A stretch of 64,000 nucleotides of DNA from Octopus vulgaris. Lineage: Eukaryota. Made by a program: the position numbers and the translations under genes. Positions 31,042 through 39,531 of the stretch are shown piece by piece. How positions within the stretch are numbered: position 1 is the first letter of the stretch; each line of letters begins with the position of its first letter. A model generated the notes under the pieces. The model was not told the origin of the DNA, searched no databases, and saw only the letters and a program-made list of their open reading frames with translations. The stretch is from assembly GCA_951406725.2 (NCBI GenBank), contig OX597815.1:4650001-4714000 (forward strand). The letters are read 5' to 3'.

Positions 31042-31207
31042 AGGCGCAGGAGTGGCTGTGTGGTAAGTAGCTTGTTTACCAACCACATGGTTCCGGGTTC
31101 AGTCCTACTGCGTGGCACCTTGGGCAAGTGTCTTCTACTATAGCCTCAGGCCGACCAAAGCCTTGTGAGTGGATTTGGTAGATGGAAACTGAAAGAAGCC
31201 CGTCGTA

Positions 31208-31276
<69 letters not shown>

Positions 31277-33561: not shown

Positions 33562-34216
33562 GAAAATTACTATTTTTAAATCTCACAACAAGAGATATTC
33601 AGCAACAGTACTTTGTAGTAAAGATTGTTTGCCAACATAACATGGCAATCCTGGTTTAGGATGAATGCTGCAGTAATTTAGCCCCAGGAGACATCGTCTT
33701 CAGCTGGCTTTATGACATGATCTGTGTCCTTATTGTTTTGAACAAGGGAATCTAGCACGCCCACTCGGCTCAAAACAATATCCGTGTGTCTCCTAGGGCT
33801 AAATTACAGCAACATTCGTCCTAAACAAGGACTGCCATGTAATGTTGGCTAACAATCTTTACTCTAAAGAACTGTTGCTGAATATCTCACGTTGTGAGAT
33901 CTAAAAACAGTAATTTTCTAATTTATAAATCAGCAACTAGTTGTCACTTTGAAAACTATATATTTCGAACGGGAATTTGGCAGCACCACCTCTAGCCAAA
34001 CAATTATTCTGTGCTGATGAAGGAAAATAACCCGGAAATCATGATACACAGATATTGTTTTGAGCTGAGTTGGGGTGCTAGATTCCCTTGTTCGAAAATA
34101 TAAGGACACAGATCCTGTCGTATAGCCAGCTGGAGACGATGTCTCCTGGGGCTAAAATTACAGCAACATTCGTCCTAAACCAGGACTGCCATGTTATGTT
34201 GGCAAACAATCTCTAC
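33562..34216. mobile_element. Penelope-associated / retrozyme-like element: inverted partial copy plus ~1.2 tandem units of ~353 nt
   Basis: Direct repeat 33787-33862 vs 34140-34216 (period 353). 33562-33786 is the reverse complement of the same unit. One hammerhead per unit; no ORF. Confidence 0.75.
34008..34052 (+). ncRNA. Type I hammerhead ribozyme (canonical core)
   Basis: TCTGTG-CTGATGA-AGGAAAATAACCCG-GAAA-TCATGA-TA^CACAGA. Stem I is 6 bp perfect and extended by AAACAAT/ATTGTTT; stem III is the palindrome TCATGA; stem II is weak. Predicted cleavage after 34046. Confidence 0.8.
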
Positions 34217-35273
34217 CTCAAGCATATTTTTGTTTGATTACCTGACTTTCTTTCCTGAACAAAATTGTGACTTTATCACCAGCCACCATAAATTGTGACT
34301 TTTCACCTCCCCTTAGCCAAAATTATGACTTTTCTACCCCTGTGATTTTATAATAGGCCAATGGGGTTCGTTATAATCCTCCTACCTATCGGATCCTGTC
34401 AAATCATCCAGCCCCTATCAACACGGCACACGGTCACTAACTGACGCTTGTGTGCATGTGTGTCCATCTACCTTGTATATGCGTGTTTGTGAGATACATT
34501 TACACGACATATATGTCACGGTGCTATTTAAAAACCTGCGTTAATGATTTTTGCTTTCTTTTTTGCTTCATTGTTTTATTTCAGATACTAAAATAAACAC
34601 GTGATTTATATTCCCCCAACGCATCGCTTAATGTCATCTAATATTATATATATATATATATAAAGTGTATTGTCATTGTGTACGAGACACGCATTGTCAC
34701 TTAATAAAACAACCATTTCATACATTGTTTCTATCGCTATTATTTTCGGTTGTGTAAGGGGGAAGTGGGACATTTTCCTTACTGAAAATTGTGACTTCAT
34801 TTCCGTTCATCAAACACACAAAGCAGGGTAAAATGGTACACATACACACACACACACACACATAGTGTATTGGCATATATACACCGCAGGGTACACCACA
34901 ATTAGAGCAAGATAGTTTTTAACAAAATGGGTTTAACAATTATAAAGTTATGAATTATTTTGAGCTTTGACGCAAACATGTAGAGTAAAAAAAAAAAATT
35001 AAAAAAAAAAGTTTTCTTTTGATACCCTGTATAAAAGCATAACTAATTAAGTCGGGGGTGGGGTACACAGCTGTAATTATGCCTATATATATATATATAT
35101 ATATTACTTATTATATTATATATTTATCATTCATTTTATACTTTTTGAGATCTAGTTATAAGTTATATGGCGATCTTTCGTATCTATTATTTGTCAATTT
35201 CCGTATGTATTGGTCTATGTCTATCACTGTTTGAGTTGCATAATAGTGGTTTTATCTCATACATTCATATTTC

Positions 35274-38507: not shown

Positions 38508-39219
38508 GAGTAACCCCTCGGCTATCGCGGGTGTTACGTTCCAAAACCCCACCCCGCGACGGACGAAAATCCACGAAGTAGAAACAGTACTCTCTCTACT
38601 CTTTTACTTGTTTCAGTCATTTGACTGTGGCCATGCTGGAGCACCGCCTTTAGTCGAGCAAATCGACCCTAGGACTTGTTCTTTGTAAGCCCAGTACTTA
38701 TTCTATCGGTCTCTTTTGCCGAACTGCTAAGTTACGGGGACGTAAACACACCTGCATCGGTTGTCAAGCGATGCTGGAGGGGGGGGACACAAACATATAC
38801 ACACATATACGTATGTGCATATATCTCTTTTACTCTTTTACTTGTTTCAGTCAATTGACTGTGGCCATGCTGGAGCACCGCCTCTTTAGTCTAGCAAATG
38901 GACCCCAGGACTTATTCTTGTAAGCCTAGTACTTATTCTATCGGTCTCTTTTGCCAAACCGCTAAGTTACGGGGACGTAAACACACCAGCATCGTTTATC
39001 AAGCGATGTTGGGGGCGGGGACAAACAGACACACAAATATATACATATATATATATACGACGGGCTTCTTTCAGTTTCCGTCTACCAAATCCACTCACAA
39101 GGCATTGGTCGGCCCGAAGCTATAGCAGAAGACACTTGTCCAAGGTGCCATGCAGTGGGACTGAACCCGGAACCGTGTGGTTGGTAAGCAAGCTACTTAC
39201 CACACAGCCACTCCTACGC

Positions 39220-39265
<46 letters not shown>

Positions 39266-39531
39266 TACGATGGGCTTCTTTCAGTTTCCCTCTACCAAAT
39301 CACTCACAAAACTTTGGTTGGCCCGAGGCTATAGTAGAAAACATTTGCCCAAGGTGCCACGCAGTGGGACTGAACCCAGAACCATGTGGTTCACACAGCC
39401 ACTCCTACGTATATATTAAAAAAAAAATTATTTCTATAATTTGTATATATTTATTTTATTATAAATGCAGAACACCACCACAGAGGAATTGACGTAAGCT
39501 TAATAAATTGTGATATGGCGAGGGATTACTG
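38508..39531. mobile_element. Pogo/Tigger-like MITE interrupted by three stacked SINEs
   Basis: TA-GAGTAACCCCTCG ... CGAGGGATTACTG-TA termini; SINEs at 38589-39410 inside. Confidence 0.7.
38589..39410 (-). mobile_element. Three stacked SINE family A copies/fragments
   Basis: Tail half 38589-38815, full copy 38824-39221 and head half 39255-39410; consistent with one copy nested in the central microsatellite of another. Confidence 0.8.

Follow-up and report, generated by a model that had tools for sequence, protein, structure and literature searches.

At 33562 to 34222 of the window (the whole 64-kb stretch of octopus DNA analysed here) a 354-nt repeat unit lies head to head with an inverted copy of itself, and the layout is best explained by one event in which Penelope-type machinery acting in trans inserted two 5′-truncated copies. 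We put this account at close to even chances, and in it the stop of one copy at a predicted hammerhead cut is slightly more likely to come from ordinary truncation with microhomology than to be a record of self-cleavage. The Penelope-type layout is supported because both outer ends of the insertion match the two fixed 3′ ends of the family, a tail signature already published; the first-pass annotation had likened the arrangement to the inverted 5′ pLTR of Penelope insertions, and this match strengthens the likeness. As judged from its letters, the element would behave as a non-autonomous element mobilised by Penelope, and it fits the retrozyme class by size and motif, with a predicted ribozyme that departs from the consensus in one feature. 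It is not an autonomous Penelope.

Numbering the unit from 34047, the first base 3′ of the predicted cut, the locus holds 1.2 direct units with a period of 354 nt and one inverted arm. The inverted arm (33562–33786, minus strand) runs from unit position 1 to about 226, with its 5′ end at the predicted cut and its 3′ end at the family's second, or tail, end point; it includes a tail extension of about 50 nt (33562–33611, unit ~177–226) that the right end of the insertion lacks. The direct arm (33787–34222, plus strand) covers unit positions 94–354 and then 1 to about 176, ends at the family's main end point, and runs through an intact predicted ribozyme with the cut site unbroken. This is a partial tandem with an adjoining inverted, 5′-truncated copy, head to head, as in Penelope-mobilised elements. 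The first base of the direct arm, unit 94, is the last loop base of a 6-bp hairpin (34132–34146, plus strand). Further copies of the unit were not found elsewhere within the 64-kb window, and the insertion has no convincing target-site duplication, which is optional in Penelope. The right end with its flank was seen independently in one sequencing run (X4 record 32, 34187–34500, 3 differences), while the head-to-head junction is absent among the 15 of 159 joints listed and hence stands without independent confirmation.

Overlapping segments of the arms, which are short, differ pairwise by 6.5–12.5%. Each of the three overlapping segments carries its own private differences, and no shared derived change singles out one arm except for one A-run, as expected for a single event. 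C>T and G>A changes make up 50 of the 77 variable places (run X1). The arm divergence with its private changes and the excess of C>T and G>A indicate, on sequence grounds, that the head-to-head insertion of the 354-nt unit is old.

The first-pass annotation had placed the start of the inverted copy at the predicted cleavage site with about 1 nt of ambiguity, and both statements were borne out. Read on the minus strand from 33786, the inverted arm begins CACGGATATTGTTTTGAG, compared with CACAGATATTGTTTTGAG at 34047, with one substitution. The direct arm starts sharply at 33787, as the 11 letters on its left have no match with the family. The exact overlap at the junction (33786–33790) is 1 nt, as 33787 can be read as A17, but 3 of the next 4 nt match too: 33787–33790 reads GACA and the sequence 5′ of the cut reads GATA, and a match of at least 3 of 4 has a chance of ~0.06. 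Owing to this match, BLAST prolongs the inverted arm to 33790/34043, leaving two parses, one in which the arm ends at +1/−1 and one in which it extends 4 nt further and annealing used imperfect microhomology. For a uniform 354-nt unit, the chance that one of two arm ends lands in a 2-nt window at the cut is ~0.011, and 0.028 for a 5-nt window. An arm end at the cut is therefore unusual for one locus, yet in a family of thousands of contigs it should turn up many times. The junction at the cut is real, but by itself it is no record of in vivo cleavage. The inverted arm pairs with its counterpart over 132 nt at 89% and, by BLAST, over 174 nt at 89.7%, so the suggested potential for 130–170 bp of dsRNA is real in the sequence, although it would need read-through transcription. 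When a read-through transcript of the locus was folded, a ~170-bp helix sequestered the 3′ strand of the ribozyme, and on this model the ribozyme is likely silent in such a transcript.

The copies in public sequencing data were surveyed by aligning 33787–34500 to contigs of 4 of the 24 runs listed: three of DNA (X1, X4 and X10) and X15, which is RNA only by guess and was not used for expression; the list names no RNA dataset as a carrier of the family. The small-share runs X16–X24 lay outside the set. The DNA runs gave 10,202, 6,329 and 7,197 aligned contigs, and X15 gave 488. Loose ends mark the main 3′ end behind 34216 in 111, 106, 96 and 9 contigs (X1, X4, X10 and X15) and behind 34212 in 49, 41 and 39 contigs of the DNA runs, and the remainders past it are long, mixed and AT-rich. 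A few further shared letters follow 34216 and put the true main end near 34222, and binned depth drops ~900- to 1,500-fold from 34171–34194 to 34219–34242. An ORF called independently in another copy (P0002, 5 contigs) stops being similar at that point too. The tail 3′ end is marked by 30 contigs behind 33921, among the rows listed in X10 only (one of the three DNA runs); X15 record 17 ends nearby at 33922, and depth past 33921 falls to 0.22–0.29 in X4 and X10, with no drop in X1 (1.06). The right end of the insertion is the main family end, and its left end corresponds to 33918, 3 nt from 33921. A Penelope-mobilised element shows two fixed 3′ ends, and one of its arms may carry a tail; the main end was found in 4 of 4 runs. 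Family depth also decays 5′-ward, as for truncated retrocopies. As to head-to-tail repetition, other contigs bridge each part of the unit (X10 records 9–11), and a joint that goes back 353 occurs in 4 of 4 runs, with none of the pieces listed spanning a full dimer.

Several other features of the copies were observed in the survey. Seven of the 32 contig pieces listed begin exactly at 33942, the 5′ foot of a predicted rod hairpin; five of these seven carry 59–515 unaligned letters upstream, one of them with 0 substitutions relative to the window. These starts could represent a longer form of the element (an autonomous partner), a hotspot of 5′ ends, an allele that has gained an insertion, or clipped alignments. 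A joint between 33965 and 34089 skips 123 nt in 4 of 4 runs, deleting the whole ribozyme-bearing tip of the rod, with the skip lying close to a short palindrome present twice, on both strands of the hairpin. In X1 and X4, one copy has TTAGGG repeats, which we take to resemble telomeric repeats, between two element pieces (34156 to 33935/33938). Opposite-strand joints are common in the family, making up 10 of the 15 joints listed (of 159), mostly with ends 55–110 nt apart in window coordinates.

The 354-nt unit has no ORF and gave no coding match; an ORF-less unit of 150–450 bp with a type I hammerhead is the form of a retrozyme. An RT and GIY-YIG ORF between pLTRs was found neither in the 64-kb window nor linked to the unit by protein search, and Pfam searches of 22 of the 27 long window frames (5 microsatellite frames were excluded) gave nothing above cut-off. 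Searching for an autonomous partner through a 47-aa open frame found no longer protein; phmmer brought up two candidates, a spurious ORF from another copy and an unrelated repeat protein of bacterial origin, and both were rejected. Minus-strand called ORFs, examined as a record of 5′ ends, gave no match. The single match in a metagenome scan with a 19-nt motif was discarded as a chance 19-mer without further similarity, and three short motifs found no match in the octopus Naiad supplement. The direct arm (33787) opens one base into an ATG that heads a short frame, for which no RT-bearing protein relative was found.

From the arm coordinates, the period, the core motif, the two fixed 3′ ends and the 5′-ward decay of depth, all of which are observed, we infer the following protein action. 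A Penelope-type RT-endonuclease would have acted in trans to cut both strands of AT-rich DNA, and two cDNAs would have been primed at two internal start sites on the RNA, at unit ~176 and ~226. The first cDNA, of 437 nt, would have passed the ribozyme and covered more than one unit before stopping in the hairpin loop at unit 94; being longer than the unit, it implies that the template would be a circle or an uncut tandem transcript. The second, of 225 nt, would have halted at the cut or at most 4 nt beyond it. The 3′ ends of the cDNAs may then have been joined through complementarity of 1 exact nt or 3 of 4 nt, after which the arms would have aged independently to the divergence given above.

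The predicted type I hammerhead lies at 33998–34061 (plus strand), with its scissile bond, AUA^C, at 34046–34047 in agreement with the NUH rule. The core nucleotides C3 U4 G5 A6 N7 G8 A9, G12 A13 A14 A15.1 and U16.1 H17=A are all present and in order at 34014–34046. All three stems are present: an open-ended stem I of 6 bp, which has an internal loop as well as a distal helix; a stem II that is short; and a stem III of 2 bp that is palindromic (34038–34045). Stem II has 2 bp in the window copy and 3 bp, with an added G-C, when the family-majority G is placed at 34024, and the majority letters at 34041–34042 preserve the stem III palindrome. An extra G (34034) between C and GAAA leaves stem II with an A.G mismatch at its base, so a G10.1-C11.1 pair directly beside G12 is missing, and the majority letters show no change there. 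As given in the available part of PMC4209133, the Penelope hammerhead consensus does not include such a closure of stem II, and the portion of PMC7229834 at hand describes a mismatch at the same place in axolotl HHR_Amex2. Rfam hammerhead models gave 0 matches at the gathering threshold and none at E ≤ 10. A relaxed core pattern matched 7 times in the window with 6.8 expected, a count near chance, so we credit the motif for its stems and family conservation and not for the pattern. The 354-nt unit folds far better than its shuffled versions (z −7.3), and folding predicts a long rod hairpin (33942–34108, plus strand) with the ribozyme at its tip; the minimum-free-energy fold is an alternative pairing and not the active hammerhead. 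The stem II mismatch, the alternative lowest-energy pairing and the empty Rfam search count against the ribozyme, whose self-cleavage is a prediction.

The strongest rival, which holds the fossil of self-cleavage proposed in the first-pass annotation, keeps the same Penelope-type insertion but takes the inverted arm as a copy run off a linear RNA that had cleaved itself and had its 5′-OH at unit +1, and the direct arm as a copy of a circular or uncut template. It is a serious contender that we would still bet against. Besides the breakpoint at +1/−1 of the predicted cut, it gains from the best parse of the junction, which assigns 33787–33790 to the direct arm (4 of 4 letters against 3 of 4), and from the ribozyme itself, with all core nucleotides present and majority letters that restore a third stem II pair and keep the stem III palindrome. 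There is also outside precedent, as animal retrozymes occur as linear and circular monomers (available text of PMC7229834) and ribozyme cuts mark 5′ ends in R2 and Perere-3 (PMC3774820 and PMC8501958, as far as their accessible parts go). Against it, the direct arm of the same insertion crosses the uncut site, the join could also be due to the 3-of-4 microhomology, and the A.G mismatch closing stem II lies outside the published consensus. In addition, of 9 dimers made from Xenopus retrozymes only 1 was cleaved in vitro according to the accessible part of bioRxiv 10.64898/2026.07.22.740005, and the available text of PMC11167929 reports that the anole element inserted in vitro without needing cleavage and that no RNA read had either of its ends at the cut.

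The first-pass annotation had held that a spike of family 5′ ends at the cut would support cleavage, and this comparison was run in part. Loose ends at 34043–34047 are absent among the 24 of 1,260 rows listed, and the opposite-strand joints, 10 of the 15 listed from a total of 159 (a listing in which orientation is not given and the ranking rule is unstated), have none of their 20 ends at 34046–34047; the nearest is at +4, and four are upstream of the cut. All 4 listed joint arms extending as far as the cut continue beyond it, which is weak evidence given a 95% upper bound on stopping of 0.53. Leaning towards run-off, six joint ends lie at +5 to +33 as opposed to two at −1 to −35 among the joints listed, a difference that is not significant (P ~0.3). 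We also measured depth loss per base where the window differs from the majority, contig depth being a crude measure. Across the cut it was 1.37 and 1.28%/nt in X1 and X4, compared with 1.24 and 1.64 just downstream and ~3 just upstream, so neither run has a step at the cut. In favour of run-off, the loss in X10 was 2.42%/nt across the cut, steeper than 0.9 downstream, and a second contig end lies at 34043: X4 record 29 ends there with 113 unaligned letters, as one of 13 pieces with at least 40 unaligned letters 5′ among the 32 pieces listed. A strong or dominant spike at the cut is ruled out, but a modest enrichment, even of 10-fold, could be hidden. A rough odds table for run-off, whose inputs are partly assumed, spans 0.10–0.92 overall and 0.36–0.74 if 5–10% of the arms reaching the site stop there.

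What stands of the proposal that self-cleavage made the template's 5′ end is the start of the arm at the cut; the family spike that it predicted did not appear among the rows listed, with the read-through of the direct arm, the microhomology and the non-canonical stem II also set against it. Given the Penelope model, run-off from cleaved RNA falls just short of an even chance, and we rate a fossil of self-cleavage in the inverted arm as somewhat below evenly balanced. The fuller proposal, that one insertion froze both RNA forms, a self-cleaved linear monomer in the inverted arm and a circle or uncut multimer in the direct arm (1.2 turns), both primed at two Penelope start sites, is doubtful but far from negligible. 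A minority peak at the cut, made by 5′ ends from throughout the family, would serve as genomic evidence both of hammerhead cleavage on the RNA used for Penelope-type retrotransposition and of the insertion of animal retrozymes by Penelope machinery.

An origin in two steps or at the DNA level, with a second insertion beside the first or a fold-back or template switch through the long hairpins, and with the position at the cut due to chance, is unlikely. It would fit the missing target-site duplication, the start of the direct arm within a hairpin loop, a listed joint (33988/34074) that connects near-partners of the rod hairpin, and a pairwise divergence that is uneven over short segments. However, the outer ends match both 3′ end points of the family, which is what priming of two cDNAs would give, and apart from the one A-run no shared derived changes separate one arm. 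A simple fold-back at the unit-93 hairpin was rejected, as it predicts a different junction, namely a palindrome centred on unit ~93 and not a jump to unit 1. Stalling of the RT at the ribozyme core without cleavage also seems unlikely, by reasoning only, as stem I would already be unwound there. That the junction is an assembly artefact is very improbable: it is missing among the 15 of 159 joints listed, but the arms differ by ~10%, far above read error, ten other opposite-strand joints point to such inversions being common in the family, and the right end with its flank recurs in X4.

The preferred reading, a single Penelope-type insertion, can be set against known systems as they are described in the available parts of the papers cited. 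Penelope-like elements typically have inverted 5′-truncated copies, to which a tail may be added (PMC8557442, PMC3846280), and in the anole element the tail equals the distance between two RT start sites (PMC11167929). Like endonuclease-containing Penelope-like elements (Penelope/Poseidon, Neptune; PMC8557442, PMC3846280, PMC11167929, PMC4209133), the window locus has a partial tandem, a head-to-head inverted 5′-truncated copy, two fixed 3′ ends with a tail that one arm may carry, a hammerhead with an extra base after A9, and AT-rich flanks. Unlike them, it has no RT/GIY-YIG ORF in the unit or the window and has an extra G before GAAA. Its tail is ~50 nt as opposed to 30–40, and its 3′ ends lie ~176 and ~226 nt past the cut as opposed to ~85–92 nt for the main start of the anole element (PMC11167929). 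Circular templates have been proposed for more-than-unit copying (PMC4209133).

Animal non-LTR retrozymes have units of 330–390 nt with type I hammerheads and are expressed in the form of both linear and circular RNA (Cervera and de la Pena 2020, accessible text of PMC7229834), and the available part of Li et al. 2026 (bioRxiv 10.64898/2026.07.22.740005) argues that they are non-autonomous Penelope derivatives. The window unit, with 354 nt and no ORF, resembles those of Mytilus galloprovincialis (350–390 bp) and axolotl (330/350 bp) in these two sources, and it shares with animal retrozymes a type I hammerhead with a short palindromic stem III, strong self-pairing, many genomic copies and head-to-tail continuity across the unit. 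It differs from them in that the locus has 1.2 direct units and one ribozyme, no tandem array was shown, and it is known from DNA alone; by the criteria of Li et al., so far as the available text gives them, a locus with one ribozyme would not count as active. The inverted arm and the tail are additions relative to retrozymes as described in the same two sources. The R2 HDV-like and Perere-3 twister ribozymes (accessible parts of PMC3774820 and PMC8501958) are a precedent for reading a ribozyme cut from genomic 5′ junctions, but the cut there defines the full-length 5′ end, whereas most copies of the window family end elsewhere and many read through. A literature search that took in few subscription papers found none on an octopus hammerhead repeat or on 5′-end histograms at Penelope hammerhead cuts, and the word 'ribozyme' does not occur in the available text of PMC13282606. 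The supplements of PMC7229834, bioRxiv 10.64898/2026.07.22.740005 and PMC13282606 could list the 354-nt family.

What the hammerhead does in Penelope-like elements is described as unclear in the available text of PMC8557442 and PMC11167929, and the mobiliser of animal retrozymes has so far been argued from co-occurrence and sequence kinship (PMC7229834 and bioRxiv 10.64898/2026.07.22.740005, in the parts at hand). To this the 354-nt family adds insertion-level anatomy on an ORF-less unit, with two fixed 3′ ends, a tail, an inverted arm and a more-than-unit copy. While the single junction alone is no proof of in vivo cleavage, the family has thousands of copies, which makes the cleavage question directly testable by a histogram of 5′ ends.

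Two observations concern the surroundings of the insertion. Contig depth in the right flank at 34219–34290 and 34387–34434 is well above the single-contig level of its neighbours, which suggests that another low-copy repeat adjoins the insertion. The 64-kb window is also dense in microsatellites and in short dispersed repeats that look octopus-like and end in (TA)n/(CA)n, with self-hits up to ~40 deep; examples are the pair 31042–31226 and 39037–39221, and 38588–39391.
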